64,000 nucleotides of DNA, from NCBI GenBank assembly GCA_963831605.1, contig CAWHQR010000010.1, forward strand, positions 1,073 to 65,072, read 5' to 3'. The notes below the pieces were generated by a model. That model worked only from the letters and a program-made list of their open reading frames with translations, searched no databases and was not told the DNA's origin. The DNA comes from an uncultured Solirubrobacterales bacterium. GTDB lineage: Bacteria; Actinomycetota; Thermoleophilia; Solirubrobacterales; 70-9. Below, one piece after another: positions 546-20,597 of the stretch. Numbering within the stretch: position 1 is the stretch's first letter; every line of letters starts with the position of its first letter. The position numbers and the translations under genes are program-made.

Positions 546-620
546 GACGGCAAAATCGTGCGCTACGACTCCTACTGGAACCGCGCCGAGACCCTCGAAG
601 CCGCCGGGCTGTCGGCGGAG
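546..620 (+). pseudogene. 3' remnant of a SnoaL-like cassette gene (...GKIVRYDSYWNRAETLEAAGLS, stop lost)
   Basis: Frame of ORF 468..1031 reads the family C-terminal signature. The nucleotide string ctcgaagccgccgggctgtcgg matches the 3' ends of the six intact paralogues. No matching N-terminal part. Confidence 0.5.
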
Positions 621-666
621 CCGCTTTGGACGAAAAGCGGCTATGCCGCGTTGCATGGAAAGCAGC
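620..666 (+). repeat. Hairpin pair: type A (GCCGCTTT-GGACGA-AAAGCGGC) then type B (GCCGCGTT-GCATGG-AAAGCAGC)
   Basis: Read directly. 8-bp inverted repeats around 6-nt loops, between the cassette remnant and CDS 709. Confidence 0.85.
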
Positions 667-669
667 ACG

Positions 670-696
670 TTGACTTCAGCCGCCTGGCGGTAGACT
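670..696 (+). promoter_or_regulatory. Possible promoter TTGACT-N15-TAGACT, 12 nt before ATG 709
   Basis: Hexamers read directly. The 15-nt spacer is short, so this is weak. Confidence 0.25.
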
Positions 697-708
697 CAGC
701 CGCCGCGG

Positions 709-1470
709 ATGATCTCGCGCGGGGCAAAGAGGTTGGGGTTGGCAGCGGCCGTGGCGCTCACACTCCTCGCTGTCCTCGCGCCCGCTTCGCCGGCGGCCTC
801 CCAGCAGTTGAAGATCCGCGCGGTCTACCTCGGCGGGAACATCACGCCCCCGGTCTCGTTCGTCGAGCTGCAGATGACGGCGCCGGGGCAGACCCTCCTC
901 AATGGGCAGGTGCTCAGCATCTGGAACCACGACGGCTCGTCGAACACCAACTTCGTCCTCAACCACGACGTCGCGAACGGCGCGGACCAGAGCACGATCC
1001 TGATCGGAGACCAAGGAGTGCCGAGCGCTGACTTCAACGTGCTGATGCATTCCTCGCTGACCGCCAGCGCCGCCGCGGGGGCCGTTTGCTACGCCTCGAT
1101 CGATTGCGTGTCCTGGGGTGGAGCGTCGTTCACTGGCAATTCGAGCCTCCCGACCTCGGCTGGGACCCCGATGTCCTCGGGCCTCAACACCACCTCGGTC
1201 CTCATCAGGACGATCGCGCGCGGCTGCGCGACGGCGCTCGACGAAGCCGACGACACCAACGACAGCCTCGCCGACTTCACCTCCGGGCCATTCGCGTACC
1301 AGAACAACGCGAGCCCGCCGACCGACACGCCGTGCGCTCCCCCCGTGTCTACCACCCCGGCCCCATCTCCGACCGGTCAGCGCGCCGCCGCGCTCAAGAA
1401 GTGCAAGAAGAAGCAGGGCAAGAAGGCCCGTAAGAAGTGCAAGAGGAAGGCGAGCCTGCTACCCGTCTAA
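709..1470 (+). CDS. Secreted protein, lamin-tail-domain-like core, Lys/Cys-rich C-terminal tail
   Basis: Signal peptide LGLAAAVALTLLAVLAPASPAAS. SFVELQMTAPGQTLLNGQVLSIWN resembles the LTD pattern (xFVELxN...L.GW.L). Tail QRAAALKKCKKKQGKKARKKCKRKASLLPV. Confidence 0.7.
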   Translation: MISRGAKRLGLAAAVALTLLAVLAPASPAASQQLKIRAVYLGGNITPPVSFVELQMTAPGQTLLNGQVLSIWNHDGSSNTNFVLNHDVANGADQSTILIGDQGVPSADFNVLMHSSLTASAAAGAVCYASIDCVSWGGASFTGNSSLPTSAGTPMSSGLNTTSVLIRTIARGCATALDEADDTNDSLADFTSGPFAYQNNASPPTDTPCAPPVSTTPAPSPTGQRAAALKKCKKKQGKKARKKCKRKASLLPV

Positions 1471-1502
1471 GCGCGGATGCGAATCGAACGCACCGGGGAA
1501 CC

Positions 1503-1543
1503 GCCGCTTTGGACGAAAAGCGGCGCTTTGCATGGAAAGCGGC
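1503..1543 (+). repeat. Fused type A + type B hairpins
   Basis: gccgctttggacgaaaagcggcgctttgcatggaaagcggc, 33 nt after stop of CDS 709..1470. Confidence 0.85.
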
Positions 1544-1593
1544 ACTGAACTCGCGCCCTGCTGCGGATCTTCGGCCAGTCGCGCTAGCGGCGG

Positions 1594-2451
1594 CTACTTC
1601 TTTCGCTTCAGCGTCACCGAGGTCGCGAGGGCCCGTGCTGTGCCACCCGTCGGCGTGTACGTGATCGTCGGCGAGACGCTCACCTTGCCCTTCAATCTGA
1701 GCTTCCTCTTCTTCTTCCCCGAGGCACGGATGGGCAGCTGCACCGTGCCAGCCGAGGGAACGCTCACGGCGGCTCTTGCGCCAGAGGAGCTGGCCGTCAC
1801 GCCCGTTCCGCCGACCGTCGCGGTGCCTGGGTTCGGAATGGTGATTGTCGCGGTGGCAGTCCCGTTCTTCTTGTTCCGTGCGATCCCATCCACGGTGAAG
1901 GTGTTGGTCGGCTCCACCTTGGCCGAGACGTTCAGGCGACGATCCATCGCGAACAGGGCGAAGGTCCCAGAGCCGCCGTCATCCAGGCTCCCGGGACTCC
2001 TGAAGTAGCTCTCGCCGGTGACGTCGAAGGTGCAAATGGGCCCGGTTGTGTCAGCTGGTCCGGTGGAATTCCCGAGGATCTCGCCGGCCTTGACCGCCAG
2101 ATTCGCCTGGAACGTGTTCAGGGTGTTAGGGGTGATCGTGTGAGGGCCGTCGTGGACGATGACCTGGTAGGACGTCCCCCCGAGCGACCGATACACCTTC
2201 ATCGTGAGCGCGTCCCCCGCCGCCGTGCCACCTTGCGTGCTCCATGAGGTGAGCGTCCATTTCGTGATCCCGCCCGTCGACGGCACCACATAGCTATTGC
2301 CCGAAGTGACCGTTGGCTGCACCCGATCGAACGGGGAGCAGAAGACCGCCGGGGTGGACGTCTGCCCGACGATTACGGCGCCTGCGGGCGCAGCGCCCGC
2401 GGCCAGCGCCAACACGGTCAGCACCACAAGCTTGATCGATAAGCGTCTCAT
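1594..2451 (-). CDS. Secreted protein with C-terminal K-rich ...PTITYTPTGG... module
   Basis: ORF 1594..2466. The second ATG (2451) has AGGGGAG 5 nt upstream. Signal peptide MRRLSIKLVVLTVLALAAGAAPAGA. C-terminal module shared with CDS 14672..15826. Confidence 0.7.
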   Translation of the reverse strand: MRRLSIKLVVLTVLALAAGAAPAGAVIVGQTSTPAVFCSPFDRVQPTVTSGNSYVVPSTGGITKWTLTSWSTQGGTAAGDALTMKVYRSLGGTSYQVIVHDGPHTITPNTLNTFQANLAVKAGEILGNSTGPADTTGPICTFDVTGESYFRSPGSLDDGGSGTFALFAMDRRLNVSAKVEPTNTFTVDGIARNKKNGTATATITIPNPGTATVGGTGVTASSSGARAAVSVPSAGTVQLPIRASGKKKRKLRLKGKVSVSPTITYTPTGGTARALATSVTLKRKK

Positions 2452-2658
2452 CTCAACTCCCCTCATCCACTTCCCCTGTACCGCAACAACCGATCGACCC
2501 TAACACTCCGCTGGTCGCCGACGCAAGCTCCGCTACCAGCCCCGGGGGCGGCGGCGGGCTAGCTAGCGGCGGTCTTTTGAGCGGGCAGTTCTCCGCCGGC
2601 ACCCTTCCCTGGGTCGCGGGATACTGATCAGGTCAAGTCCAAGCAGAGGAGGAACCAA

Positions 2659-2886
2659 ATGGCGCGGTGGATCAAAGGAATGGCCGCGGCCGGTGCTCTG
2701 ACGGTTGCACTCGCATTTCCGGCTGGAGCGGGAGCGCGAACGCAGTGGATCTGCACGGTCGATGGTGAGCAAGTCGTCTTCGTGTCTGCGGGCGACGCTG
2801 CCCACCACGGGCTCACGATTGCTGACAGCAAGGCTGGGGTCGTGTTCGAAACTAAGTTTGGTGAGGTGGACTGCCACGTAGAGTGA
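2659..2886 (+). CDS. Small secreted protein (75 aa)
   Basis: AGAGGAGG 6 nt before the ATG. Signal peptide MAAAGALTVALAFPAGAGA. Two Cys in the mature part. Confidence 0.5.
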   Translation: MARWIKGMAAAGALTVALAFPAGAGARTQWICTVDGEQVVFVSAGDAAHHGLTIADSKAGVVFETKFGEVDCHVE

Positions 2887-2896
2887 CGCGGAGGGC

Positions 2897-2930
2897 GTGG
2901 AGCCCTCGAAGCCCGCTGGATCTGTCGAAT
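2897..2930 (+). pseudogene. Degenerate 3' remnant of a SnoaL-like cassette gene
   Basis: gccctcgaagcccgctggatctgtcgaatgg aligns to the family 3' end gccctcgaagccgccgggctgtcggagtag with a few substitutions and indels. Followed by a type A hairpin, as in intact cassettes. Confidence 0.4.
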
Positions 2931-2936
2931 GGCAAA

Positions 2937-2962
2937 CCGCTGCTTTGGACGAAAAGCAGCGG
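2937..2962 (+). repeat. Type A hairpin (CCGCTGCTTT-GGACGA-AAAGCAGCGG, 10-bp stem)
   Basis: Read directly. Confidence 0.85.
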
Positions 2963-3106
2963 TCCTACGCCGAAGAGCCCCGCGATTGCGAGGCTCTCCG
3001 TATTCCCTCCGCCCCCGGCGGCCACCACGGCGGCCGGGGCGGGCGTTCTCAACCTACGCCCTGGTGGCGGACGGGCCAACGTCGGTTGACGATCCAGCGG
3101 CATGGC

Positions 3107-3316
3107 CTACTCCTTGACGAACTGGATCACCAGGCGCTCCGGCTGTTCCTTCTGAAAGTGCCGGACTCGCACGCGCCCGCCGCGCTTCGCACCTTGCTGT
3201 CGAGCGTTGGTCGCGAACGTCGTCGGCTTGCCGCCGAAATCGACGCCTGCGATCAACTCCCACGGCGAACCGTCGAAGGTGATGACGGTCTCCCGTTCTG
3301 CGGCGGTCAGGCTCAT
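3107..3316 (-). CDS. Hypothetical small protein (69 aa from internal ATG)
   Basis: ORF 3107..3418. ATG at 3316 has AAGGAAA upstream. No recognisable domain. Confidence 0.3.
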   Translation of the reverse strand: MSLTAAERETVITFDGSPWELIAGVDFGGKPTTFATNARQQGAKRGGRVRVRHFQKEQPERLVIQFVKE

Positions 3317-3797
3317 GGGTTTCCTTTGCTCACGGTTCGGTTCCTTTCGAGGATTGGGGCAAAAGTGGGTGCGCGTCGATTCCGGGAAGGACGTGTTTGG
3401 GGTCCCCGTGGAGTTCACGGGTTCTCATTCAGTCCGCTTCGTCGGCCCGGCCCTAACCCGCCGAACGCGGGGCGCTTTGTCAGCGGCCGGCGCATCGGTC
3501 GTTGAACGCCACCCCTGCGCTGACTGGGGTCCTCAACGTCAGACGTACATCGTCTCCCTGGAAGCCCGCGACTCTTCAGACGCGATCAGGCGCGTGAAGG
3601 AAGCACTCGACGGCGAAGGCAGCTACGTCGAGTTCTCGTCTGACTCGCGCGTTTAGGGGGTTGAACAATCTGGGGTAGGGTCACCGGCAGTCGGCCCGCA
3701 AGAAGGGCTGGTCCTGCGCCGCGATAGCTCCTAGGCGCGTGACAAAGGCCCGGAGTAACGCCAGCTAGTCGCCGTCGAAGGCTTACGGATGGCGGCG

Positions 3798-3836
3798 GCT
3801 CAACTACTGCTTTGCATGGAAAGCAGCGGGTTGAGC
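3798..3836 (+). repeat. Type B hairpin with extended outer stem (GCTCAAC...GTTGAGC)
   Basis: gctcaactactgctttgcatggaaagcagcgggttgagc read directly. Confidence 0.8.
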
Positions 3837-3941
3837 TGACGATTCAGGAGGCAGCTGCCACCCCTGCCGGGGATGGCGCTTCGGCACATCGTCAACGGTC
3901 TCGTGGATGGAAACCGAAGTTTCGAAAGCCCTGACCATGCC

Positions 3942-4487
3942 TTACGGGAAGGTTCCGTTGACGCAGATCACGTAGCGGGCACCGTGCGGGCCCGCGCCCT
4001 TCGGCTCCGCGCCCTGGAGGTCAGGCAGCGCAAAGTTGTTGGTGCCATTGCCACCGTACGTCGTGCCCAACAGGCCGAACAGGAGGGCATTCGAGCTGAT
4101 ATCCAGCAGCCGGCCGTCGGCTGGAAGCATGGTGTTGGGGTAGGTGTTGCCGGCGATAAGGCTGAGTTCGCCAAGCACACAACTGACGTTAACCACGCCC
4201 TGACTAAAGCTGCCGCCGGGGCTCCCGAAGAGACCCGCGGACGCGAAGTTCAAGCTGGAAGGGCTGATATCGGCCGCGGTCAGCGACTGGTCCTGGACTT
4301 TCGCTCCATTCACCGCGTTGGCCTGGATCTTCGCCCCATTCACAGCGTTGTTCTTGATCTGCTTCGTGCCGATTACGTTCTTTCCCAGATGAGTCGCGGC
4401 GATTGCGCCGCCACCGAGCGCCAGGAAGACGGCAACCGTCGCCATCACGTTCGCGTAGGTCAGATTGGCCCGAACCTTCCCCGTCAT
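3942..4487 (-). CDS. N-terminally anchored phage-tail-collar-domain protein (COG4675/MdpB-like)
   Basis: ATG 4487 with GGAGG upstream. TM anchor ANVMATVAVFLALGGGAIAA. Repeats IKNNAVNGAKIQANAVNGAKVQ. C-terminus LLDISSNALLFGLLGTTYGGNGTNNFALPDLQG matches the tail collar consensus (LFsLLGttyGGdG.ttFaLPDLrG). Confidence 0.8.
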   Translation of the reverse strand: MTGKVRANLTYANVMATVAVFLALGGGAIAATHLGKNVIGTKQIKNNAVNGAKIQANAVNGAKVQDQSLTAADISPSSLNFASAGLFGSPGGSFSQGVVNVSCVLGELSLIAGNTYPNTMLPADGRLLDISSNALLFGLLGTTYGGNGTNNFALPDLQGAEPKGAGPHGARYVICVNGTFP

Positions 4488-4557
4488 GGCCCACCTCCTG
4501 CATCGCTTCTTCTCCCTTCGGTCTGAATCATATGGCGCGGGGACGGGACGGGCGAAC

Positions 4558-4593
4558 GCTGCCTTGGACGAAAAGCAGCTACCGCATGAAGGC
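4558..4593 (+). repeat. Type A hairpin plus degenerate type B
   Basis: gctgccttggacgaaaagcagc followed by taccgcatgaagg. Confidence 0.75.
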
Positions 4594-4607
4594 GCCCCCC
4601 GACGCAG

Positions 4608-4636
4608 TTGACACCCTCCTCGGCCATGGGTATAGG
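4608..4636 (+). promoter_or_regulatory. Candidate promoter TTGACA-N17-TATAGG for CDS 4707
   Basis: Perfect -35 and 17-nt spacer read directly. The -10 lacks the final T. Confidence 0.35.
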
Positions 4637-4706
4637 GTCGCCCACAGCGTGAGGGGGGCAGGGGACCCCGCATCCGGGGGGGCGACGAACGACGAAAGGA
4701 CGATCG

Positions 4707-4970
4707 ATGGCTACGTACGTGATCACCCATGAAGTGGACGATGTCGACCAGTGGTTGAGCTCGCCGAAGCGTGAAGAGGTATTCGGGCCAATTGGCGTCA
4801 CTGTTCGGACCTTCTCGGATCCAAATGGATCCAACAAGACCGCGCTCATCGCTGAGATCCCGGACATGGAGGCGTTCCAGGAGCTCATGAAGAGCGACGC
4901 CGCAGCGGATGCCATGAAGAACGACGGGGTCAACCCGGAGACAGTTCTCGTTCTGAGCGAGGGTCAATAG
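4707..4970 (+). CDS. Hypothetical small cytoplasmic protein (87 aa)
   Basis: AAAGGA 8 nt before the ATG. Coding-like composition. Followed by an A+B hairpin pair. Confidence 0.55.
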   Translation: MATYVITHEVDDVDQWLSSPKREEVFGPIGVTVRTFSDPNGSNKTALIAEIPDMEAFQELMKSDAAADAMKNDGVNPETVLVLSEGQ

Positions 4971-4977
4971 CGGCGTA

Positions 4978-5025
4978 GCCGCTTTGGACGAGAAGCAGCT
5001 GTCCGCTTTGCATGGAAAGCAGCGG
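4978..5025 (+). repeat. Type A then type B hairpins
   Basis: agccgctttggacgagaagcagct gt ccgctttgcatggaaagcagcgg. Sits between stop 4970 and the leader of CDS 5051. Confidence 0.85.
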
Positions 5026-5050
5026 CCGCCCGCGACATACTGCGCGAGGG

Positions 5051-5449
5051 ATGTCGGAGGAGAACGTCGAGCTCGTGCGGAGGGCATTAGACGCCTGGAA
5101 CCAACAGGATGAAGAGACGGCCTTGCAGCTCTTCTCGCCTGACGCGGAGCTCGATGCGTCCGGCCGCATCCTGAACCCGGATATCTACACCGGGATCGAC
5201 GGCCTCATGCGGTTTCGCCGTGATATCGCCGAGGCCTGGGATCGCTTTGAGGTGGAGATCGAGGACCTCTTCGATTCCGGCAGCCTCGTGGTGGTCTTTG
5301 TCCGCTCGCTTGGCAAAGGGAGGGCCAGCGGGATCGAGGTCGATTTTCGCTCGGCTTGGCTCGTCGCTGTGTCCGATCAGAAAATCACGAGACTTCGGTT
5401 GTATCGGGAACGGAAGGAAGCCTTGGAAGCCGCCGGCTTGTCGGAGTAG
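5051..5449 (+). CDS. SnoaL-like / NTF2-family protein, paralogue 1
   Basis: MSEENVELVRRALDAWNQQD...EALEAAGLSE. Start chosen by alignment with paralogues. The upstream M of ORF 5012 lies inside hairpin B. Confidence 0.85.
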   Translation: MSEENVELVRRALDAWNQQDEETALQLFSPDAELDASGRILNPDIYTGIDGLMRFRRDIAEAWDRFEVEIEDLFDSGSLVVVFVRSLGKGRASGIEVDFRSAWLVAVSDQKITRLRLYRERKEALEAAGLSE

Positions 5450-5458
5450 TTGGAGACC

Positions 5459-5480
5459 GCCGCTTTGGACGAAAAGCGGC
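5459..5480 (+). repeat. Type A hairpin
   Basis: gccgctttggacgaaaagcggc, 10 nt after stop 5449. Confidence 0.85.
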
Positions 5481-5625
5481 TACCGGAGGAGACGCATGAG
5501 CGGATAGTGGCCGCGGCGAACGCTGCCCGCGCCGTGTAGGAGCAGGGCCGCCCGGCTCAATCGCGGATCGCCTCCGGAAGTGGAGTCGGCCGCGAACGCG
5601 TTCTGAACCGAGTGCCAGGGCCGAG

Positions 5626-6060
5626 CTACTGGCGCTCTCCCTCCGTGGGTTTGGAGATCGCCTCCACTAGCTCACCGGTCATCTCCTCGTTCTCGCCGAG
5701 GGCGATGTCGGCTTGGGTAACGATGCCGGCGAGTTCGCCGTTCTCGACCACGGGCAGCCGCCGAACCTGGTGGCGTGCCATGAGCTCGAGCGCCTCCTCA
5801 AGGTCCTTGTCGGGCTCAACGCTGATGGGATCCTGACGGCCGATGTCTCCGACCGACGTCGCCTTGGGGTCTGCCCCATCAGCGACCACTGTCGTCGTGA
5901 TGTCTCGGTCGGTGATCATCCCGGCAAGCTTCCCGTCGTCGGTTATCGGCAGCGACCCGATGTTCTCGTCGCGCATCAGTCGCGCGGCCTCGACGATCGA
6001 CGCCGAGGCGTCGATCGAGTGGGGCTCCTCGGTCATCGCGTCGCGAACGCTCGTCGCCAT
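5626..6060 (-). CDS. CBS-pair domain protein
   Basis: Two CBS motifs (GSLPITDDGKLAGMITDRDI; RRLPVVENGELAGIVTQADI). GAGGAGG before the ATG. Confidence 0.9.
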   Translation of the reverse strand: MATSVRDAMTEEPHSIDASASIVEAARLMRDENIGSLPITDDGKLAGMITDRDITTTVVADGADPKATSVGDIGRQDPISVEPDKDLEEALELMARHQVRRLPVVENGELAGIVTQADIALGENEEMTGELVEAISKPTEGERQ

Positions 6061-6166
6061 CGTGCCTCCTCCTCTTTCTGTGCGATCTGAGTCCTGCTGC
6101 TGACGACCGCAGACGTTACGGATCTCCGTCAGGTCGCGCTTGCGCGGTAAGGGCGATCCAATGAGC

Positions 6167-6214
6167 GCCGCTACCCATGCAAAGTGGAATAGCCGCTTTG
6201 GACGAAAAGCAGCT
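6167..6214. repeat. Inverted type B fragment abutting a forward type A hairpin
   Basis: gccgctacccatgcaaagtgg aat agccgctttggacgaaaagcagct. Confidence 0.7.
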
Positions 6215-6585
6215 ATTCAGACGCGCGTTTCAAATCTGCAATGTCAGCCAGCGGGGTATTAAGAGATACGGGACGTGTGCCTTCGCGCACGGTCTCCCCC
6301 GCCCCCCATGGCCCTGCTTGGTTTCGGCTTCGGGTTCCGGGTTCGGGGTCAAGCTCGGACGAGCGGTTGATCGACATCGAGATCAACCGACACAAAGGCG
6401 TGGGGGTTTTTGTTTTTCCCTACCTCAATCGACTGGACACGCGGAATACGGGTCCGGGTGTCCCCAGCTCGAGGACGCAGGGGGGACCCACCCCCTCCCT
6501 CCTCGCTCTGTCCAAGGACGCTTTCAGCCGCTAGCTCGTCGCTAGAGGGTCCGGCGCAGCAGGCGAACCGAGTCGGCGCTCGCCT

Positions 6586-7791
6586 TCACTCGGTGTGGCG
6601 GTCCCTCGCCACCGGCCCGCCCGTGGCGAGCACGCGTTCGAGCGTGTCGAGAGCGAACGAGACATCGTCCGAACCGTTAAAGAAGTGAATCGAGAATCTC
6701 GTCGAACCGAAGCGCGGGGAGACGATCACTCCCGATTGATTCATCCATGCCGCCACCTGCTCGCCGTCGCGCTCGGGGAAGCGTGCGGTGACGATGCCAC
6801 TTCGCCGCTCGTCCTCGCGGGGCGTAATCACCTCGGCTCCCAGGTGTTCGAGCCCCTCGATGAGCGTCGAAGCCAGTTTCAGGTTGTGCTCGAGGATCCG
6901 ATCGACGCCGATCACCGAGATCTGCCTGATCGCGGCCGCCAGCGCAACGCCGGCGGAGTAGGACATGGTCGCGTACTCGAGTCGCTCGACCACCGACGAG
7001 GCCAGCCTGAGCGAAGAGGCGTGCAGCGACCAGGGGTCGACCGCACTCTTCCATCCGACGAAGTGAGGATCGAGCCGCTCGAGCAGCCGCTCGCCGACGT
7101 AGCAGAGCGCCGCGCCGAAAGGCCCGCAGAGCCACTTGTAGCCCGCGCAGAGCAGGGCGTCGATTCTCACGCTGGAGAGATCAATCGGAACCGCCCCCAG
7201 CGACTGCGAGGCGTCGACGACCAGCAGGGCGCCGTTGGTCTCGGCCAACTCCGAGAGCTCCTCGAGCTGGTAGCGAAAGCCGGTCGAGTACTGGACGTGG
7301 CTGACGCTGATTGCTGCGGTTCGCTGGTCGACGGCCTCAGCGAGCCCCTCGAACGAGAGCTTGGCCAGGTCCCCAGCCGCTGGGACCAGGCGGACCTCCG
7401 CCCCGGTGTCTCGCGCGACCCTCATCCAGGGATAGGTGACGGTGGGGAACTCGAGGTCGATTGAGACCACATTGCTGCCGCTCTCTGGACGCAGCGACCA
7501 GGCGATCTGCGAGAGCGCCTCAGTGACGCTTGTCGTCACCGCGACCTGTTCGGCCGGTGCGCCGAGCAGCGCGGCGCCCTCGCGGCGCGCCTGCTGGAGG
7601 ACGCCCACCTCGGTCGGCTCATCGAACCAGGTGGTGCCATATAGGCCGAGCTGGCTCTGGAACTTCTCCTCCTCGGCCAGGGCGCTCCGCGACATCAGAC
7701 CGATCGAGGCGGTGTTCATGTAACAGATGTCGTCGAGTGCGGGGAACTCGCCCGCGGGGGCCAGCGAGGCGTCCACGTTCTCCTGCGACAT
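6586..7791 (-). CDS. Class V aminotransferase / cysteine-desulfurase-like PLP enzyme
   Basis: 401 aa. YMNTASIGL near the N-terminus and overall class V layout. The first six codons MSQENV are shared at nucleotide level with the SnoaL cassettes. Confidence 0.85.
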   Translation of the reverse strand: MSQENVDASLAPAGEFPALDDICYMNTASIGLMSRSALAEEEKFQSQLGLYGTTWFDEPTEVGVLQQARREGAALLGAPAEQVAVTTSVTEALSQIAWSLRPESGSNVVSIDLEFPTVTYPWMRVARDTGAEVRLVPAAGDLAKLSFEGLAEAVDQRTAAISVSHVQYSTGFRYQLEELSELAETNGALLVVDASQSLGAVPIDLSSVRIDALLCAGYKWLCGPFGAALCYVGERLLERLDPHFVGWKSAVDPWSLHASSLRLASSVVERLEYATMSYSAGVALAAAIRQISVIGVDRILEHNLKLASTLIEGLEHLGAEVITPREDERRSGIVTARFPERDGEQVAAWMNQSGVIVSPRFGSTRFSIHFFNGSDDVSFALDTLERVLATGGPVARDRHTE

Positions 7792-7794
7792 CGC

Positions 7795-8235
7795 CTACTC
7801 CCGCAGCCCGGCGGCTTCGAGGGCCTGTTCGAGGGTGTCGTACTGATCAAGCCTCGTGATCCGGCCATCCTGAAGCTCGAAGGAGAGGACGAGTTCCATC
7901 TCGACCCGCAGCCCGCTCGCGCTTCCAACGCCCGACGCCTTCATGGGGACCAGGACGCGCTCGCCGGCCTCGACGTAATCGAGCCACTTCATGCGGTATT
8001 CGCTGAACGGCTCGAACCATTCCCTGAAGTATCGGATCAGACCGTCCCAGCCCTTGTAAAAGCTGCTTGGACCGGACCCAATACCCGACTCCAGCGTCCT
8101 CAGCTCGATGTCGGGCGAGTAGTCGCGCTCCAAGATCTCGCGGATCGCTTCGCCTTCCCAATCGATGCCGGTGATTTCCGCATCATCAAACGGTTCGAGC
8201 AGCGCCTTGATCTTCTCGACGTTCTCCTGCGACAT
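7795..8235 (-). CDS. SnoaL-like / NTF2-family protein, paralogue 2
   Basis: MSQENVEKIKALLE...QALEAAGLRE. 3-nt gaps to both neighbours (TAG-GCG-ATG). Confidence 0.85.
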   Translation of the reverse strand: MSQENVEKIKALLEPFDDAEITGIDWEGEAIREILERDYSPDIELRTLESGIGSGPSSFYKGWDGLIRYFREWFEPFSEYRMKWLDYVEAGERVLVPMKASGVGSASGLRVEMELVLSFELQDGRITRLDQYDTLEQALEAAGLRE

Positions 8236-8238
8236 CGC

Positions 8239-8661
8239 CTACTCCGACAGCCCGGCGGCTTCGAGACCATCGGCGCGGTCCGAATATTCCTCGATACGGC
8301 GGAGTTTGCCGCCCTCGAAGGTGTTGACGTGAGCCAGCTCCATGTCGATTGGAACCCCGCTTTCTGCACCGTGGCCCGAGAAGCGAACCCAGACGAACGC
8401 CCGATTGCCGTTGGTCTGGATCTCAAGCGGCTCCACCTGCAGGTCGGGATAGGCCTCGACCCATCGCCATATCTGCTGCCTCACCGCCTCGATGCCCCGG
8501 TGGATGCCGGGATCAGGGTCGCTGGCGGAGTTCACGTACACGCCGTCCGGATGCCAGACATCCAGCGAGGCGAGTTCTTGCTCGTCAACGGGATCTCGTT
8601 CGGCCCGGTTGAACCTGGCGTATCCCGTGCGAACGAAATCTTCGACGTTCTCCTCCGACAT
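8239..8661 (-). CDS. SnoaL-like / NTF2-family protein, paralogue 3
   Basis: MSEENVEDFVRTGYARFN...DGLEAAGLSE. ATG 8661 preceded by the conserved leader gagatactgcgtgggcg. Confidence 0.85.
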   Translation of the reverse strand: MSEENVEDFVRTGYARFNRAERDPVDEQELASLDVWHPDGVYVNSASDPDPGIHRGIEAVRQQIWRWVEAYPDLQVEPLEIQTNGNRAFVWVRFSGHGAESGVPIDMELAHVNTFEGGKLRRIEEYSDRADGLEAAGLSE

Positions 8662-8690
8662 CGCCCACGCAGTATCTCGCGGCGGAGTAC

Positions 8691-8708
8691 TGCTTTCCAT
8701 GCAAAGCA
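8691..8708 (-). repeat. Type B hairpin (reverse orientation)
   Basis: tgctttccatgcaaagca, 30 nt upstream (gene sense) of ATG 8661. Confidence 0.8.
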
Positions 8709-9032
8709 CCAGTGTCGTTAACAGATCGCCGCCGAGAACTTCAATACCGGGTGGAGCTCTATGGCGTTCGGCGCGACCCCGGTTTGACCGTGCGGGATGT
8801 CGAAGAAGCCCACTCCGGTCAACGTCGCACACGACAGCTAGTTCTCGAGCTGCGCGGGCTTTCTGAAGGGCTGGTGCGTTCCCGGCGCCGCCCTTCCGTT
8901 TCCTTGTCAAGAAGCTGATTGCCCAGGTGGGGAGCTTGAAGACGGCGCCGGCTGTTCCGTAGTCGAGTTGGTGGTGAAGCAACTGCGGTTTCGCCATGCA
9001 GGTGAACGACCGCAAGCAGCGTAAGTGGTCGC

Positions 9033-9500
9033 ATGGCCATCGTTCAATCTCCTGACCAGCAGGCGGACGAGATTCTGCTGCAAGAGCTGGAGCGCACGGA
9101 CGATTTGCTGCTGAAAGAGCTGGAGCGCGTGGACGAGATGCTCCTGCGGATTGTGGCCACAATCGACCTATTGCCGGAGCGAATCGCCTCTGCAAATAGG
9201 AGGGAGTTCAGGTCCGTATCAGGCAATGGAACGGGTGCAGCAGAACCGGCGCGAGGCCAGGCGTCCACTCGACCGTTCGACCCCTATGGGGAGGACGAGG
9301 TCGACCCCTATCTGGAGGACGAGGTCGAGGCCGCCGCGGACAAGAAGTCAGCGGCCAGTCAGGTGGCCACGAAAGTGGAGGGCTGGGTAGCGGGCTATGC
9401 CCCAGACTGGGAGGCGCCCAGATTCGCAACCGTCTCGCTGGCGGTTGCCTTGTTTGCGACCGCCATCGCTGTGGTCGGCTTGATCGTTGCTGTCTTTTAG
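9033..9500 (+). CDS. Hypothetical tail-anchored protein (acidic, C-terminal TM helix)
   Basis: Internal repeat LLQELERTDDLLLKELERVDEMLL. C-terminal VSLAVALFATAIAVVGLIVAVF. Locally lower GC. Confidence 0.45.
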   Translation: MAIVQSPDQQADEILLQELERTDDLLLKELERVDEMLLRIVATIDLLPERIASANRREFRSVSGNGTGAAEPARGQASTRPFDPYGEDEVDPYLEDEVEAAADKKSAASQVATKVEGWVAGYAPDWEAPRFATVSLAVALFATAIAVVGLIVAVF

Positions 9501-9528
9501 TCCGGGCGTGGAGGCAATCCTCATGACT

Positions 9529-9557
9529 GAAAAAGGGCGATAGCCCAGGTATCGCCC
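9529..9557 (-). terminator. Intrinsic terminator after paralogue 4
   Basis: Minus strand: GGGCGATA-cctgggc-TATCGCCC followed by CTTTTTC. 8-bp stem abutting the stop codon. Confidence 0.6.
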
Positions 9558-9958
9558 TACTCCGACAGCCCGGCGGCTTCGAGGGCCTTTGCGTCCTGGT
9601 GGGGGAGGAAGTTCTCCACTCGCGTAAAGATGCCGTCGTCGTCAAACGTCCAGAGGACCCAGAACTCGAGATCCATCTCGATCCCGCTCCCCGCTCCACG
9701 GGCGCGGGCATACGAGCGGACCAGAACGTTGTTGCCCTGGACCCGGAACTCGCGTGGCTGAAGCTGTTGCGACTCGAAGGCGTCGGGCTCCATCCATGCT
9801 CGAAGCGCGTCCACGCCTCTCAGCGGCGCTTGATCCCCCGCGGGGAAGAACTCAATCTCGGGATGGACCCGCTCCACCGCGGCGTCGAAGTCGCCGCGAT
9901 TGAAGGCTTCATAGCCACGCCGCACGACATCGATCATCTCCTGCTCTCGGTCAGGCAT
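9557..9958 (-). CDS. SnoaL-like / NTF2-family protein, paralogue 4
   Basis: MPDREQEMIDVVRRGYEAFNRGDFDAAV...KALEAAGLSE. Conserved leader gagatactgcgcgggcg before the ATG. Confidence 0.85.
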   Translation of the reverse strand: MPDREQEMIDVVRRGYEAFNRGDFDAAVERVHPEIEFFPAGDQAPLRGVDALRAWMEPDAFESQQLQPREFRVQGNNVLVRSYARARGAGSGIEMDLEFWVLWTFDDDGIFTRVENFLPHQDAKALEAAGLSE

Positions 9959-9986
9959 CGCCCGCGCAGTATCTCGCGCAAAGGTT

Positions 9987-10030
9987 TCGCTTTCCATGCA
10001 AAGCAGATAGCCGCTTCTCGTCCAAAGCGC
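9987..10030 (-). repeat. Type B + type A hairpins (reverse orientation)
   Basis: tcgctttccatgcaaagcaga t agccgcttctcgtccaaagcgc. Confidence 0.85.
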
Positions 10031-10360
10031 AACTTGGAGGGTCTAGGTGAGGAGGGATCCTCAGCCCGAAGATGGAGCGGATGGACCATCAACCGGAGCC
10101 CGTTCAGTTCCTGGAGTGGATACACGGACCAACAGGAGCGCGGAATAGCGCCAGCCGGTTCGGGACTCTGAATCGGAAGCCACCGCGTGTGACATCTGGA
10201 GGACCCCCCCTACGGTGTCTTTGGTTCGCGCGGCGTCTATCTGAGCGACAAGCTCTCTCATCGACGAACCTTCGAACCCGAGGAGTTTGGTCGCCTCCAC
10301 AAGGCGGCATCATAGGTGGCCGTTCTTGCCTAGCGTGTTTGACGCTCGCACCAAGACACA

Positions 10361-10400
10361 GCGCTTCCATGCGAAGTGCCGCTTCTCGTCCAAAGCAGCT
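10361..10400 (-). repeat. Degenerate type B + type A hairpins (reverse orientation)
   Basis: gcgcttccatgcgaagtgc cgcttctcgtccaaagcagc. Confidence 0.75.
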
Positions 10401-10433
10401 GTCGCCTACTCCTGCAGCCCGGCGGTGGCTAGG
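10401..10433 (-). pseudogene. 3' remnant of a SnoaL-like cassette gene (...LATAGLQE*)
   Basis: ctactcctgcagcccggcggtggctag aligns with the family 3' end ctactccgacagcccggcggcttcgag. No upstream body. Confidence 0.45.
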
Positions 10434-10534
10434 GGGAAGTCATGGCGGCTTGGAAGAAGCGGCGATTCTGAACGCGCCCGACAGGATTCGAATCTGGGGC
10501 AGACTCGCAGCGAGCATCGTGCACCCCTGGGAGA

Positions 10535-11785
10535 TCAGTAGATGGGCAGCTTGTCGAGGAGCGCAAATCGGTCGTCGATTGTCTCGAGCAGATCCTTGTT
10601 GTGAAAGATCATCTTGCTGCGCGTGTAGACGCGAAGCCACTGCTTGTAGATGTGGAGCTCATAGCGGTCGAGCATCTCGCTGAGCGTCAGGTCTTCACGC
10701 TGAGCGATCAGTCCCGCCAAGAACATCGCGCACTCGAAACCGAGCGAGATCGACTGGAAATACGGAGAACCGATTGCCGAATCGCCGGCCAGGAACACGG
10801 GCGAGCTGGAGAAGGGGTGATCATCGGGGCCCGTCTTGCGCCATTCGCGGTTGGTCGCGTTACGCGCTCGATACACGTTGAGCGGGATCCGGACTATCGC
10901 CAGGTCGCCGACCAGCTCGCCATTGGTTTCCTGCTTGATCTTGTCGATGAAGTTGTCCATCGACTCCGCGACCGCGGGAAAATTGCTGCGAAGCCAGTTG
11001 CCATCGAAATGTGACGGCATCGCCTCGTACTCGTCAGCGGTGATGTGGACGATTCCTGTCACGTGGGTGACGCTGCCGTCGTAGTAGGTGCGGTGGACGA
11101 ACGGAATGAACTTGTAGTGAGGGTTTTCGGCGTTCTTGTAGTACTTGCAGTACTCGTTGCAGTCGTAGGTCTGGCCGTACAGGAAGGTGATCACCAGCGC
11201 GTGTTCGAGCGAGATGTTCAGCGTGTTCGCGCCTCCAACCAAGGCCTCGTCGCTGGAGCCCGGTGCCAGGTGATCTCGTAGCAGCGACCCGCTGCCCGTG
11301 CAGTCGACCAGGAGGTCACCCGGCTCGAGCATCGCGATCGCGTCCTGCGCGGTTACGTCGGCCTCAGTGCGTTGCACTGCGCTCGACCCGTTCGAGTCGA
11401 TCAAATCGCTGAGCGTGTGCTCGATGGCGTTGAGCGGACAGAACCCCTGTGCCCACTCGCGAAGATTTGCCATCAGCTCGCGGGAGACGGACCGTCGGAA
11501 CGCGAGGCCCTCGTCGAGCTCTTCCGGATCGAAGACTGCGGCGACCGTGTCTCCGTCAATGTAGTCGGCGCTGTAGCTCTCGACTGAATCCGCCACGAGA
11601 TAAGGCGCGAGTTGGACCATTCGGGTGCGCGTGTACTCGCGTCGCTTCTCGTAGAGGCTCAGCGGAAGGCCCTCGATCGACTGCAGCAACGCCGTCAACA
11701 TGAGGCCAACGGGCCCCGCGCCGATGACGTGGACTCGGCCTGCGGAAGGAAGGGACTCGTCGAGGACAGTAGAGGCGGGGGTCAT
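10535..11785 (-). CDS. FAD/NAD(P)-binding oxidoreductase (monooxygenase-like)
   Basis: N-terminal dinucleotide fold VHVIGAGPVGLMLTALL. GD motif FLAGDSAIGSPYF. 416 aa. Confidence 0.8.
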   Translation of the reverse strand: MTPASTVLDESLPSAGRVHVIGAGPVGLMLTALLQSIEGLPLSLYEKRREYTRTRMVQLAPYLVADSVESYSADYIDGDTVAAVFDPEELDEGLAFRRSVSRELMANLREWAQGFCPLNAIEHTLSDLIDSNGSSAVQRTEADVTAQDAIAMLEPGDLLVDCTGSGSLLRDHLAPGSSDEALVGGANTLNISLEHALVITFLYGQTYDCNEYCKYYKNAENPHYKFIPFVHRTYYDGSVTHVTGIVHITADEYEAMPSHFDGNWLRSNFPAVAESMDNFIDKIKQETNGELVGDLAIVRIPLNVYRARNATNREWRKTGPDDHPFSSSPVFLAGDSAIGSPYFQSISLGFECAMFLAGLIAQREDLTLSEMLDRYELHIYKQWLRVYTRSKMIFHNKDLLETIDDRFALLDKLPIY

Positions 11786-11901
11786 TGAGTGGCCGACCAG
11801 CCTTACTCCGGGGGCATCGTAGAGCCTCTCACGATATACCTGACCCCGGCGTCTGCGAAGCTCTTGGCGTGACGTCGTTGGGCCAATGGCGCACCTGGTG
11901 G

Positions 11902-12453
11902 GTGAAGCAGCGCTGGTATGAGCGCAACCACCGCCAGCGGCGCCGCCTGCGCCTCAACCGTCACGCGGCCCAGGGTGGGTTCTTCATCCGCTATCCGATC
12001 GAGGGCGAGGTCCTTGAGGCGCTCGATTCGGGAAGGCTGGAGATCGGCGAGGGCACCCTTCTGGAGCCGGGCTGCTGGCTGACCCTCTCGGACGACGCGC
12101 GGATCAGGATCGGAGAGGGCTGCTTCCTGAACAAGAACACCATGCTCGCGGCCCTCGAGCTCATCGAGATCGGCGACCACGTGATGTTCGCCAACAACTG
12201 CTTCGTCGGAGATTCGAATCACCGCTACGACGACCCGACCAAGCCGATCACCTGGCAGGGCTTCGAGCCGCAGGGCCCCGTGCGGATCGGCTCCAATTGC
12301 TGGTTCGGGGTCGACTGCGTCGTCACCGGCGGCGTCCAGATCGGGGACCGGTGCGTAATCGGCGCGAATTCCGTGGTCACGAAGGACCTCCCCAGGGGAG
12401 TGATCGCGGCCGGTGTCCCGGCCAAGGTGATCAGGGAGATCGAGTTCAAGTGA
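11902..12453 (+). CDS. Hexapeptide-repeat (LbH) acyl/acetyltransferase; start uncertain (11785-11902)
   Basis: IGEGCFLNKNTMLAA..IGDHVMFANNCFVGD..IGSNCWFGVDCVVTGGVQIGDRCVIGANSVV. ORF-track start 11785 overlaps the divergent ATG of 10535..11785, so the in-frame GTG at 11902 is preferred. Confidence 0.75.
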   Translation: MKQRWYERNHRQRRRLRLNRHAAQGGFFIRYPIEGEVLEALDSGRLEIGEGTLLEPGCWLTLSDDARIRIGEGCFLNKNTMLAALELIEIGDHVMFANNCFVGDSNHRYDDPTKPITWQGFEPQGPVRIGSNCWFGVDCVVTGGVQIGDRCVIGANSVVTKDLPRGVIAAGVPAKVIREIEFK

Positions 12454-12566
12454 TGCCCCGGTTACACCGGGCCGCACCTGCGGTCATATTCGACACCCGG
12501 TTCCCTGCCACGACTCAACGAGGAAGCCGATGAACGACCAAACCCCCGCCCCCGTTCCCTAGCTAA

Positions 12567-12626
12567 CCGCTGCTTTTCGGCTCCGGCGAAACCGCCGCTT
12601 TCCATGCGGCGCCTCGTCCAAAGCAC
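12567..12626 (-). repeat. Compressed/degenerate A and B hairpin cluster
   Basis: Gene sense after the stop: tgctttggacgaggcgccgcatggaaagcggcggtttcgccggagccgaaaagcagcgg. Confidence 0.6.
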
Positions 12627-13027
12627 TACTCCGACAGCCCGGCGGCTTCGAAGGCTTCCTCCTTCGTCTGGTACATCGTGAGCGAGGTCTGCTTCCCGTC
12701 GCGGAACGCGATCAGCCACGCGCTTCGCACCTCTAGGTGGATGCCGTCCCGACCCCGCATGTGTGCGACGTTCTCCACGATCACCCGGCCGTCCTCGACC
12801 TCGACCAGGTCAACGAGCTCAAACCGCATTTCCTCGAATGCCGCGAGGCGCTCTTGCCAGAACGCCCGGATTTCGTCGTGTCCCCGATAGACGCGCGCAT
12901 CGAATGCGCGGCCGTTGGACCAGTCCCAAACGGCGTCGGGGGCCCACTCCTCCAACGCCCCTTCGACGTCACGATTGTTGTACGCGGCGAAGGCGCGTTG
13001 TACCGTCTCGACGTTCTCCTCCGACAT
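12626..13027 (-). CDS. SnoaL-like / NTF2-family protein, paralogue 5
   Basis: MSEENVETVQRAFAAYNNRD...EAFEAAGLSE. Confidence 0.85.
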   Translation of the reverse strand: MSEENVETVQRAFAAYNNRDVEGALEEWAPDAVWDWSNGRAFDARVYRGHDEIRAFWQERLAAFEEMRFELVDLVEVEDGRVIVENVAHMRGRDGIHLEVRSAWLIAFRDGKQTSLTMYQTKEEAFEAAGLSE

Positions 13028-13055
13028 CGCCCACGCAGTATCTCGCGGACGGGTG

Positions 13056-13075
13056 CTGCTTTTCGTCCACAGCGG
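13056..13075 (-). repeat. Type A hairpin (reverse orientation), here in the 5' leader position
   Basis: ctgcttttcgtccacagcgg, upstream of ATG 13027 after leader gagatactgcgtgggcg. Confidence 0.75.
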
Positions 13076-13143
13076 ATGGTGTCGCCAAGTACCGATCGGC
13101 CGGCGCCACCGCCGGCCGAGGCGGGCGCGCCAGTTCTCGGCGA

Positions 13144-13332
13144 TTATCCCTTCAGAGGGGGCAAGTCTTTCCCCCTCTTTCGCTCATAGATGGTCCCGGC
13201 GACTGCCGCGATCAGTAGGGCTGCGACGACAAACCGCAGTCCGAGCGGTAGACCGGTCGCCCATACCACTATCAATGCGATCGCAAGCACCAGCACCGCG
13301 ATTCGGTAGATGTCTAGGCGGGTGAGTCCCAT
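13144..13332 (-). CDS. Small two-TM membrane protein (62 aa)
   Basis: IAVLVLAIALIVVWATGL and FVVAALLIAAVAGTIY helices. Wedged between two cassettes. Confidence 0.45.
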   Translation of the reverse strand: MGLTRLDIYRIAVLVLAIALIVVWATGLPLGLRFVVAALLIAAVAGTIYERKRGKDLPPLKG

Positions 13333-13378
13333 AGGTGGAGCCTCACGCTGGATCTACCCCTTGTCAAGGGATGATCGC

Positions 13379-13400
13379 CAGCTTCTCGTCCAAAGCAGCT
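13379..13400 (-). repeat. Type A hairpin overlapping the stop codon of paralogue 6
   Basis: cagcttctcgtccaaagcagCTActcc. Confidence 0.8.
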
Positions 13401-13794
13401 ACTCCGACAACCCGGCGGCTTCGAGGGCCTGCTCTCTGCTGCCGTAATAGTCGAGGCGCACGCATTTGCCGTCTCGCAGCGTCCACACCGCAGCGTCGAC
13501 ACGTTCCACATCGACGCCACTCTGGCGTCCCCTGGCATGAACGCGGAGAACCGCGACGACGCGCTCACCAGCCTCAATGAACTCCTCCGGATCCCAACGC
13601 CAGCTCTCCCAACTGCTCTCCCAATCGGCCTGCCAACGAGCCAGTCCTTCCAACCCCCGGTACTCACCGGAGTCCGGTATGTCGTGGTCGTAGATCTCGA
13701 TCTCCGGGTCGCAAACTGCAAGAGCAGATTCCATGTCGCCGCGTAGGTACGCGTCATAGGAACGGCGCACTATCTCCACGTTCTCCTCCGACAT
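13399..13794 (-). CDS. SnoaL-like / NTF2-family protein, paralogue 6
   Basis: MSEENVEIVRRSYDAYLRGD...QALEAAGLSE. Leader gagatactgcgtgggcg. Confidence 0.85.
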   Translation of the reverse strand: MSEENVEIVRRSYDAYLRGDMESALAVCDPEIEIYDHDIPDSGEYRGLEGLARWQADWESSWESWRWDPEEFIEAGERVVAVLRVHARGRQSGVDVERVDAAVWTLRDGKCVRLDYYGSREQALEAAGLSE

Positions 13795-13822
13795 CGCCCA
13801 CGCAGTATCTCTCGGCGGAGTA

Positions 13823-13842
13823 CTGCTTTCCATGCAAAGCGG
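13823..13842 (-). repeat. Type B hairpin (reverse orientation)
   Basis: ctgctttccatgcaaagcgg, 29 nt upstream of ATG 13794. Confidence 0.8.
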
Positions 13843-13896
13843 CACTCTTGATCCGCCGGCGGACGACCCTCTACGACCAGAGCCGCCGGCAAACCC

Positions 13897-20559: not shown

Positions 20560-20597
20560 CGATCCATCGTAGAACCGAACCGCGGTATGCGTAAGCG

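Follow-up and report, generated by a model that had tools for sequence, protein, structure and literature searches.

What are the short palindromic repeats that crowd one end of a 64,000-nucleotide stretch of an uncultured Solirubrobacterales genome (contig CAWHQR010000010.1, positions 1,073 to 65,072; this whole stretch is called the window below)? An initial annotation, made from the sequence alone, described them as 22-nt hairpins that share an 8-bp stem and carry either GGACGA (type A) or GCATGG (type B) in the loop, and suggested a REP/MITE-like element (repetitive extragenic palindrome or miniature inverted-repeat transposable element) or, alternatively, a cassette-boundary element. The second guess is favoured by the unit anatomy, by mosaic breakpoints and by an empty/filled polymorphism, and we consider it very probable, judging from sequence comparisons, that A and B are the recombination junctions of mobile gene cassettes. 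The loci display a cassette architecture, with breakpoints inside the sites and, in one case, a crossover mapped to the spacer. To the full mechanism proposed below, in which a small Xer-like tyrosine recombinase would be the catalyst, we assign a probability of roughly 0.6. We found no prior description of the repeat/recombinase system in the literature.

Within the window, the pattern GCYGCTTT-N6-AAAGCRGC with at most two mismatches matched 16 times, compared with 0.02 times in dinucleotide shuffles, which bears out the presence of a two-type family; the tally comes to about 20 good copies and three or four degenerate ones. A separate, looser scan of the window gave the orientation of the copies. 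On the forward strand it placed A sites (spacer GGACGA) at 620, 1503, 2939, 4558, 4978, 5459 and 6192 and B sites (spacer GCATGG) at 645, 1522, 3806 and 5002; on the reverse strand it placed A sites at 10010, 10378, 13055 and 13378 and B sites at 8689, 9986, 13822 and 62427, with degenerate or partial copies near 6167, 10359 and 12567-12625. The loci first reported were recovered, some of their coordinates moving by 2-25 nt (3798 to 3806, 6167 to 6192, 62414 to 62427). Their crowding also holds, since the first 14 kb contains every window site except those of one isolated cassette (61198-62448); the G+C content of these 14 kb is 0.61-0.65, versus 0.67-0.72 in the remainder of the window. Window A sites lie 8-53 nt past stop codons or overlap the stop, and window B sites lie 19-64 nt ahead of starts. 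Two placements singled out earlier were seen again, one A site (13378-13399) lying on the stop of the SnoaL gene 13399-13794 and another (13055-13076) occupying a leader position. The string TACTCCG, which had been noticed next to both types, could be traced to the SnoaL_2 genes: beside reverse-strand A copies it is reverse-complementary to TCGGAGTAG, the codons with which these genes end (EAAGLSE before the stop), and beside B it is the beginning of the family's conserved leader.

The repeat is not confined to the window. An exact-pattern scan of one genome per species matched at least 118 stretches and, among the matches listed, nearly all belong to metagenome-assembled genomes of Solirubrobacterales or Thermoleophilia. 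About 100 8-kb loci from this survey (labelled L followed by a number), together with the window, supplied the 429 sites analysed here. The family is intergenic and orientation-biased, as the initial annotation held: 1 of the 409 sites outside the window falls within a called gene, and successive sites have the same orientation in 304 cases and the opposite one in 25. Solo B (n = 134), solo A (n = 103) and an adjacent A-then-B pair (n = 90) are the arrangements found in the survey loci and the window. The spacing of the adjacent pair is fixed, with a gap of 2-3 nt or an overlap of 3 nt, and the adjacent order B-then-A was never seen among the 429 sites. Distant pairs run the other way, B to A in 115 cases (median 857 nt) versus A to B in 13. 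From the predominance of B-to-A pairs and the A-then-B adjacency it follows that the unit consists of B, one to three genes and A; tandem units produce A+B junctions, with L037 as a clear array. A census of sites with A/B arms also contained the minor spacer classes GCGCGA and CACGCG. In viral contigs the site pattern gave eight single, chance-like matches, and the repeats are therefore not phage-borne.

That the orientation of a repeat follows the neighbouring gene, another early claim, stood as a bias, but about one third of the genes enclosed by sites (the CBS-domain gene of the window among them) run antisense to them, which argues against a plain promoter or terminator role. The enclosed genes are also diverse. 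Of 260 genes between neighbouring sites, 70 (27%) are SnoaL-like, and the other 190 fall into 144 clusters; Pfam assigned 143 cargo representatives to Glyoxalase (6), SnoaL_2 (4), alpha/beta hydrolases, cupins and many singletons, with many unmatched. Such diverse, poorly annotated cargo resembles that of chromosomal integrons. The window itself carries six intact SnoaL_2 genes and two remnants. Because the intact genes are only 28-43% identical to one another, the near-identical sites that flank them were not left by recent duplication; the idea of recent paralogues with copied untranslated regions was rejected on these grounds and because genes other than SnoaL carry the same sites. An exact-protein look-up returned no database record for two of the window SnoaL proteins.

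Homology between loci stops at the sites. We compared loci of different species-level genomes all against all, at 90% identity or more over at least 250 bp, and obtained 48 between-species matches, all of them cassette-sized and 90-99.8% identical. Of 179 match ends, 60 lay no more than 30 nt from a site, versus 7 of 179 random points. Cassette-sized segments recur in differing neighbourhoods and the homology ends inside the sites, as for the window segments 5460-6213 (97.5% identical to L037), 61198-62429 (96.4%, L052), 4561-4999 (90%, L059) and 13065-13380 (94.6%, L077). Fourteen contigs, representing at least five different neighbourhoods, encode exactly the 144-aa CBS protein of the window, and the DNA these share is a cassette of 754 bp at 97% identity that extends from one A spacer to the next A spacer. 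In the sites of this cassette, the cassette-proximal arm is constant and the distal arm changes with the neighbour. The same segregation of arms with flanks is seen more widely: in pairs of A sites that have only the left flank in common, the left arm contains 0.10 mismatches and the right arm 1.16, and in pairs with only the right flank in common the right arm contains 0.52 and the left arm 1.12. Three strain-level contigs that are 99.94-99.97% identical part company exactly at the end of a B site. Near-identical strains (L128 6183-6700 compared with L129 and L127) differ by a replacement whose start coincides exactly with a B site; its end in L129 lies 50 nt inside a SnoaL gene, so that one end alone is site-specific.

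The crossover could be located in one polymorphism. A 1.64-kb cassette with a sigma-70 gene and two open reading frames (ORFs) lies between direct A sites in six soil-metagenome contigs and is absent from one, and the flanks are 99-99.9% identical. In the filled contigs the left site reads CCCGCTTC-GGACGA-GAAGCGGT and the right site ACCGCTTT-GGACGA-AAAGCGGG; the empty site reads CCCGCTTC-GGACGA-AAAGCGGG. It thus combines the left arm of one with the right arm of the other, which means that the exchange occurred inside the 6-bp spacer, and mismatches delimit this spacer on either side. No inversion polymorphism between inverted sites was specifically found.

One alternative is a regulatory one, in which A and B would be palindromes read by a single factor, B as an operator or promoter and A as an end-of-gene mark, and the rearrangements would be RecA- or microhomology-driven by-products of recombination between 22-45-bp repeats. 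The placement of the sites fits it, since B precedes SnoaL starts by a constant 28 nt or so, with a conserved leader (GAGATACTGCGTGGGCGATG), and A directly after stops, and the arms are conserved independently of each other, as in a protein-binding palindrome. However, a tract of 6 bp of identity flanked by mismatches is too short for RecA, the arms segregate with their flanks, and the central 6 bp, the least conserved part of typical operators, are the most conserved part of A and B. Nor does a regulatory role sit well with the antisense third of the enclosed genes, with the lack of sigma-70 or terminator consensus at the sites, or with inverted copies that flank a tyrosine recombinase gene (see below). 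A scan for sigma-70 and T-tract terminator consensus gave no enrichment, the only T runs at the repeats being those expected by chance. We regard this explanation as unlikely.

We also asked whether the palindrome is maintained as a folded hairpin or read by a protein as duplex DNA. The initial annotation had argued for a maintained structure from a change at stem position 3 on both arms. The change is present in the copies it cited, but it is no statistical regularity, for stem positions 3 and 20 vary almost independently: they are C-G in 69, C-A in 57, T-A in 32 and T-G in 29 of 200 A copies, and T-A in 78, C-A in 52, C-G in 49 and T-G in 34 of 227 B copies. Among 139 A copies, 85.7% of cells pair, compared with 85.5 ± 0.5 after shuffling of the 3' letters; the observed pairing is reached in 174 of 500 shuffles, and the covariation score is 0.164 versus 0.159, so that paired stem substitutions are not above chance. 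Folded as DNA, perfect copies reach -8.1 and -6.7 kcal/mol and the common C-A variant -2.7 kcal/mol, no better than shuffles. Pair counts, shuffle control and the weak folding of C-A variants together rule out a structure-maintained hairpin. The six central bases, the supposed loop, are the most conserved columns of the repeat, and a conserved centre between independently varying arms is the pattern expected of a recombinase core site, where a protein reads each arm and the crossover region in the middle has to agree in the two partners.

These data bear on two further explanations. The first is that A and B are single-strand hairpin elements of the REP/RAYT (REP-associated tyrosine transposase) or IS200/IS605 (palindrome-associated transposable element, PATE) type, moved by an HUH Y1 transposase. 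Short, intergenic, orientation-biased palindromes, some of which can fold (the perfect copies), would suit it, as would a TAG motif often found ahead of the stem; in REPs, GTAG precedes the stem. Against this stand the missing covariation, the quarter or so of copies with a C-A mismatch that fold no better than shuffles, crossovers that fall in the "loop" between the arms and not outside a hairpin, and adjacent copies that are direct and never inverted. A tblastn search of 1.3 Mb of repeat-rich DNA with IS200 TnpA and Escherichia coli RAYT found nothing significant and no HUH-like ORF, the best match being antisense inside a ribonucleotide reductase gene; as evidence, this negative result is weak. 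The REP/RAYT and IS200/IS605 assignments were rejected on these points, and the REP/MITE-like label of the initial annotation goes with them; we consider an element of this kind highly improbable. Of the enzymes that the initial annotation proposed to look for, no RAYT or Y1 gene was found in the 1.3 Mb, but related loci contain a tyrosine recombinase gene flanked by inverted copies of the repeat.

The second explanation places the function in the RNA, with B as a stabilising 5' stem-loop and A as a 3' terminator or processing stem-loop. Regular positions relative to starts and stops are in its favour, and in Actinobacteria G+C-rich stems without a T-tract can terminate transcription. But the C-A mismatches of A copies (57) outnumber the wobble-compatible T-G pairs (29), the recombinase gene and an integrase gene both have an inverted A at their stop, and many enclosed genes are on the other strand. 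The repeats also have no Rfam match: at gathering score the whole window gave only a tRNA (50739-50810), and at E values up to 5 nothing was reported at the repeats in window positions 1-14.5 kb. RNA-level elements thus appear very unlikely, and we return to A and B as duplex sites for recombination.

Which enzyme might act on them? Clustering of 943 called genes revealed tyrosine recombinases in seven loci. One kind is small (215-242 aa, about 220), with an intact example at L100:6433-7161, and its gene sits within SnoaL-rich arrays. We collected 12 variants of this gene from lineages that bear A/B sites (P0001, P0004, P0013, P0032, P0043, P0060, P0083, L095, L123, L155, L161 and L177). In nine of them an inverted A site overlaps or abuts the recombinase stop (TAG followed by CCGCTTCTCGTCC), in P0013 the recombinase reads through its stop-side A site, and in L155 and L161 the A site lies 25-35 nt downstream of the stop. 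Nine of the 12 also have a direct A site about 30-70 nt upstream of the start; the L100 recombinase has B upstream in place of A. In L128 (3975-4000), L131 and L095 the recombinase start is separated from the upstream A site by a short inverted repeat (CTCCTCCGT and ACGGAGGAAG). This repeat would mask the Shine-Dalgarno sequence, which suggests that the recombinase is controlled at translation.

The small protein matches PF00589 and carries the full catalytic set of a tyrosine recombinase, with R81, K106, H176, R179, H202 and Y211 invariant in 18 sequences (H176-x-x-R179 forming the HxxR motif). Its nearest relatives by sequence and predicted fold are XerA, XerC/D and XerH. The AlphaFold2 core, modelled with a predicted local distance difference test score above 85, matches XerA (5hxy) at E = 1.3e-9. 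It is nonetheless no full-length Xer protein, which would have about 290-360 aa, a core-binding domain and scores above the cut-offs: it reaches 93 bits on the XerA model (cut-off 220) and 91 bits on that of XerC (cut-off 335), the match to the Xer models begins at about position 110, the N-terminal core-binding domain is missing, and the N-terminal 42 aa are predicted to be disordered. The integron-integrase models TIGR02249 (cut-off 265) and PRK15417 (cut-off 435) give it 58.9 and 46.2 bits, with residues 156-217 alone matching; for all curated families its scores stay well short of the cut-off. It resembles the integron integrase IntI4 (2a3v) less than XerA and XerH. Homologues number at least 7947 at E ≤ 1e-20. 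A plasmid origin was rejected, as PLSDB plasmids gave no match at E ≤ 1e-20.

The flanking repeat also varies by lineage. Two metagenomic relatives of the recombinase (L158 and L175) are flanked by an inverted repeat with A/B arms but the spacer GCGCGA, and two others (L193 and L216) by a 27-nt inverted repeat; a 60-nt flanking inverted repeat also occurs among the metagenome contigs L158, L175, L193, L216 and L184. Sister systems with other site sequences may thus exist in other lineages. We infer that catalysis is the work of the small Xer-like recombinase, at A as well as B sites, and that enzyme and site are strongly linked within the lineage, with some lineage-specific variation.

Combining these elements, we propose the following mechanism. 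A and B would be double-stranded 8-6-8 core sites for site-specific recombination, in which two inverted 8-bp arms (GCYGCTTT and AAAGCRGC), extending weakly to about 12 bp, enclose an asymmetric and highly conserved 6-bp crossover region, GGACGA in A and GCATGG in B. The asymmetry of the spacer would give each site its polarity, and the spacer probably also decides which sites pair, because sites of the same class have it in common. Two direct sites of one class would recombine and release the intervening DNA as a circle, and in the reverse reaction the circle would be inserted at any site of its class. Repeated rounds would build co-oriented arrays of B, gene or genes, and A, with A+B junctions, and would shuffle cassettes within and between Solirubrobacterales genomes. 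The small Xer-like recombinase, with its full catalytic set and without a core-binding domain, would act in trans. More speculatively, B may also contribute promoter elements and A may mark the end of the gene; on direct reading, TGGAAA and GATACT, 17 nt apart, occur upstream of SnoaL starts, although the consensus scan did not call them.

Several observations weigh against this proposal. Neither regular expressions nor tblastn found a recombinase gene in the 64-kb window, so that any action there must be in trans, and, among about 100 randomly hit loci, only 3 carry the small recombinase gene. Of its 80 metagenomic relatives (64-78% identity), most are without an A/B site in the vicinity, and most also lack a clear flanking inverted repeat; the recombinase family is thus wider than the repeat, and the link between them could have arisen by accident in one lineage. 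For a tyrosine recombinase, arms of 8 bp are short, and the usual core-binding domain is absent from the enzyme as well. Clean empty/filled events amount to one. B sites show a weak association from arm to arm (127 pairs versus 108 expected), and the regularity with which B precedes starts and A follows stops hints at a role in expression that a recombination model does not need.

Part of this bears on a further alternative, namely that the sites and the movement are as described but that another catalyst, host XerC/XerD or phage-type integrases, does the work and the small recombinase is a passenger. Integrases of 367-412 aa do abut the sites. In L085 (1385-3717) a phage-type integrase gene, in a module that includes Xis and helix-turn-helix genes, ends at an A site, and in L032 (2913-5355), L093 (5663-8000) and L094 (2390-4818) a module composed of a 244-aa ORF and an integrase of about 410 aa, 88-96% identical between species, begins at a B site. 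That such modules adjoin the sites fits the sites being substrates of tyrosine recombinases, and larger integrative elements may use them for attachment. The 6-bp central region has the geometry of Xer sites (PMC6449649), and the missing A/B sites near most small-recombinase relatives point the same way. On the other side, A lies on or just past the small-recombinase stop in all 12 variants, with an inverted site upstream in most, the flanking repeat of this recombinase differs by lineage, and the sites are unlike the general, AT-rich dif consensus. On balance we find a different catalyst improbable. Genes or gene fragments of IS110-family (DEDD) transposases also recur in the loci (L025, L030, L043, L081, L090, L101, L111 and L148); some IS110 members target REPs.

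With the small recombinase as the proposed catalyst, the arrays resemble integrons in organisation. Both consist of co-oriented, short, mostly single-gene cassettes, very diverse and largely of unknown function, with a palindromic site at each boundary and with cassettes that recur across arrays and species; in both, a Xer-related tyrosine recombinase performs excision and integration, as we infer for A/B, and many arrays lack a nearby recombinase gene, as do the integron clusters known as CALIN (attC-site clusters without an integron integrase). The features of an integron-type array, co-oriented bounded cassettes that recur and are precisely gained or lost at the sites, are thus all present. 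The components differ. An attC site is a folded single strand of 57-141 nt, an imperfect inverted repeat with R''-L''/L'-R' boxes and a GTTRRRY core, whereas A/B sites are 22 bp in 8-6-8 arrangement and contain no GTTRRRY/RYYYAAC boxes. Unlike integrons, the A/B arrays have at least two spacer classes and no evident attI site or common promoter, and the candidate recombinase lacks the IntI-specific insertion as well as the core-binding domain, which sets it apart from IntI. A survey of Actinobacteria genomes found no complete integrons (PMC4889954). No integrons are known from the host phylum; an integron-like gene-shuffling system most likely operates in its soil Solirubrobacterales.

The dif modules of Acinetobacter offer a second comparison. 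There, too, the same module occurs in different contexts, the sites have a 6-bp centre with arms conserved inside and variable outside (PMC6449649), and the mechanism is inferred, not demonstrated. The pdif sites are 28 bp long (11-6-11) and dif-like, have a variable centre, alternate in orientation, reside on plasmids and are served by XerC/XerD. By contrast, A/B sites have 8-bp arms, a centre that is the most conserved part and falls into discrete classes, co-orientation (304 versus 25) in place of alternating inverted sites, a chromosomal location and a dedicated small candidate recombinase. Compared with XerC/XerD sites in general, the 6-bp centre and the palindromic inner arms fit, but the A/B arms are only 8 bp.

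Other systems share single traits. REP/RAYT systems (REPtrons) likewise have short intergenic palindromes in many copies in one lineage and an enzyme gene between inverted copies; in A/B, however, the flanked gene is PF00589 and not HUH Y1, covariation is missing, the pairs are direct and the repeats bound mobile cassettes. In IS200/IS605 elements and PATEs a Y1 TnpA cleaves outside the hairpin, whereas the A/B crossovers fall between the arms and no Y1 gene was found. Heterospecific lox and FRT sites have identical arms and different asymmetric spacers, with the gene placed between two same-orientation classes, as in A/B, but lox/FRT cassette exchange is engineered and uses 13-8-13 sites; by this analogy A and B may be mutually incompatible and served by one enzyme. 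FimB/FimE and Rci are, like the candidate, tyrosine recombinases that are small or without an arm-binding domain and act on short inverted repeats, and the candidate gene does lie between inverted sites. They differ in that no inversion polymorphism was seen for A/B, where mainly direct repeats bound the cassettes.

We see about even odds for a wider proposal, in which these loci represent an undescribed natural cassette-exchange platform that combines a catalytic-domain-only Xer-like recombinase, 22-bp duplex sites and orthogonal spacer classes (GGACGA, GCATGG, GCGCGA and others) that would correspond in nature to heterospecific lox sites, is analogous in function to integrons though made of other components, and drives the flow of SnoaL-like and other small accessory genes between species of Solirubrobacterales and probably other soil Actinomycetota with variant spacers. 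Integrons are the standard example of dedicated gene capture; if the proposal is true, this strategy evolved more than once, and abundant Actinomycetota of soils have an independent and mechanistically simpler version of it. Part of the accessory-gene turnover in uncultured Solirubrobacterales, where cassettes are 96-99.8% identical between species-level genomes, would then be explained, the hugely expanded SnoaL-like family would become easier to approach, and a recombinase of about 220 aa with 22-bp sites and several orthogonal spacers would make an attractive genome-engineering tool. For annotation, A/B repeats should not be labelled REPs, terminators or CRISPR-like arrays.

Read from its beginning, the island in the window opens with a SnoaL 3' remnant (468-619) followed by an A site at 620-641 (GCCGCTTT-GGACGA-AAAGCGGC, + strand) and, after a 3-nt gap, a B site at 645-666 (GCCGCGTT-GCATGG-AAAGCAGC, +), which together form an A+B junction. 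A secreted protein without Pfam match, lysine-rich in its tail (709-1470, +), precedes the next junction at 1503-1543 (+), where A (1503-1524) and B (1522-1543) overlap by 3 nt. Then come a secreted protein antisense to the sites (1594-2466, -), whose family has 32 members in 24 related loci, a small secreted protein (2659-2886, +), a solo A site (2939-2960, +), a solo B site (3806-3827, +) and a phage tail collar domain protein, again antisense to the sites (3942-4490, -). The A site at 4558-4579 (+) begins the unit 4561-4999, whose counterpart, L059 2131-2562, is likewise bounded by sites; it encodes an 87-aa protein (4707-4970, +) and leads to the junction 4978-5023 (+), composed of A (4978-4999) and B (5002-5023). 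A SnoaL_2 (NTF2-like) gene follows (5051-5449, +), with B 28 nt upstream and A 10 nt past its stop. The A-to-A cassette (5459-6213, +; A at 5459-5480 and 6192-6213) contains the Pfam-confirmed CBS-domain gene (5626-6060, -) and a partial inverted B at about 6167-6188.

Beyond this cassette the sites change strand. A three-gene unit (6586-8710, -) is headed by the B site at 8689-8710 and comprises two SnoaL genes (8239-8670 and 7795-8235) and a class V aminotransferase gene (6586-7791), all on the reverse strand. The first residues of the aminotransferase are MSQENVD, with TAGGCGATG ahead of them; its start context is that of the SnoaL genes (GGCG ATG TCG SAG GAG AAC GT), and different cargo genes of one unit may thus have a conserved initiation region in common. 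Next are a membrane protein (9033-9500, +), the DNA of which is 93% identical to L108, a SnoaL_2 gene (9557-9958, -) and a junction at 9986-10031 (-) formed by B (9986-10007) and A (10010-10031). At 10359-10440 (-) a degenerate B and an A site (10378-10399) are followed by a SnoaL 3'-end remnant (GGGCTGCAGGAGTAG). Nested, scrambled half-sites at 12567-12625 (-), made up of an A left arm, a B left arm with spacer, and an A spacer with right arm, are read as a recombination scar; they stand beside a SnoaL_2 gene (12626-13027, -). The reverse-strand A site in leader position (13055-13076) belongs to the unit shared with L077, and the island ends with the A site 13378-13399 (-), the SnoaL_2 gene whose stop it overlaps (13399-13794, -) and a last B site (13822-13843, -), past which the G+C content rises.

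The isolated cassette (61198-62448, -), whose match in L052 spans 4317-5545, carries a gene for a secreted protein with a lysine-rich tail (about 61203-62323, -). Its B site (62427-62448, -) has a 12-nt internal duplication of arm and spacer that starts at 62414. At the other end only the left arm of an A site remains (61198-61204), beside unrelated DNA, and the L052 counterpart has a full A site. Both the duplicated B at 62414-62448 and the half-sites at 12567-12625 resemble scars of aberrant recombination. Many of the non-SnoaL cargo proteins are secreted and have lysine/arginine-rich tails (for example KKCKKKQGKKARKKCKRK and KRLKKRGCKP), as in window 709-1470, 1594-2466 and about 61203-62323 and in L052, L093 and L108. 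Elsewhere in the window, two neighbouring stretches of some 2.8 kb each (17803-20593 and 20597-23379) share 72.5% DNA identity and resemble tandem large paralogous genes, and a tRNA-Gln (CTG) gene at 50738-50811 (-) is the sole match of Rfam or ARAGORN.

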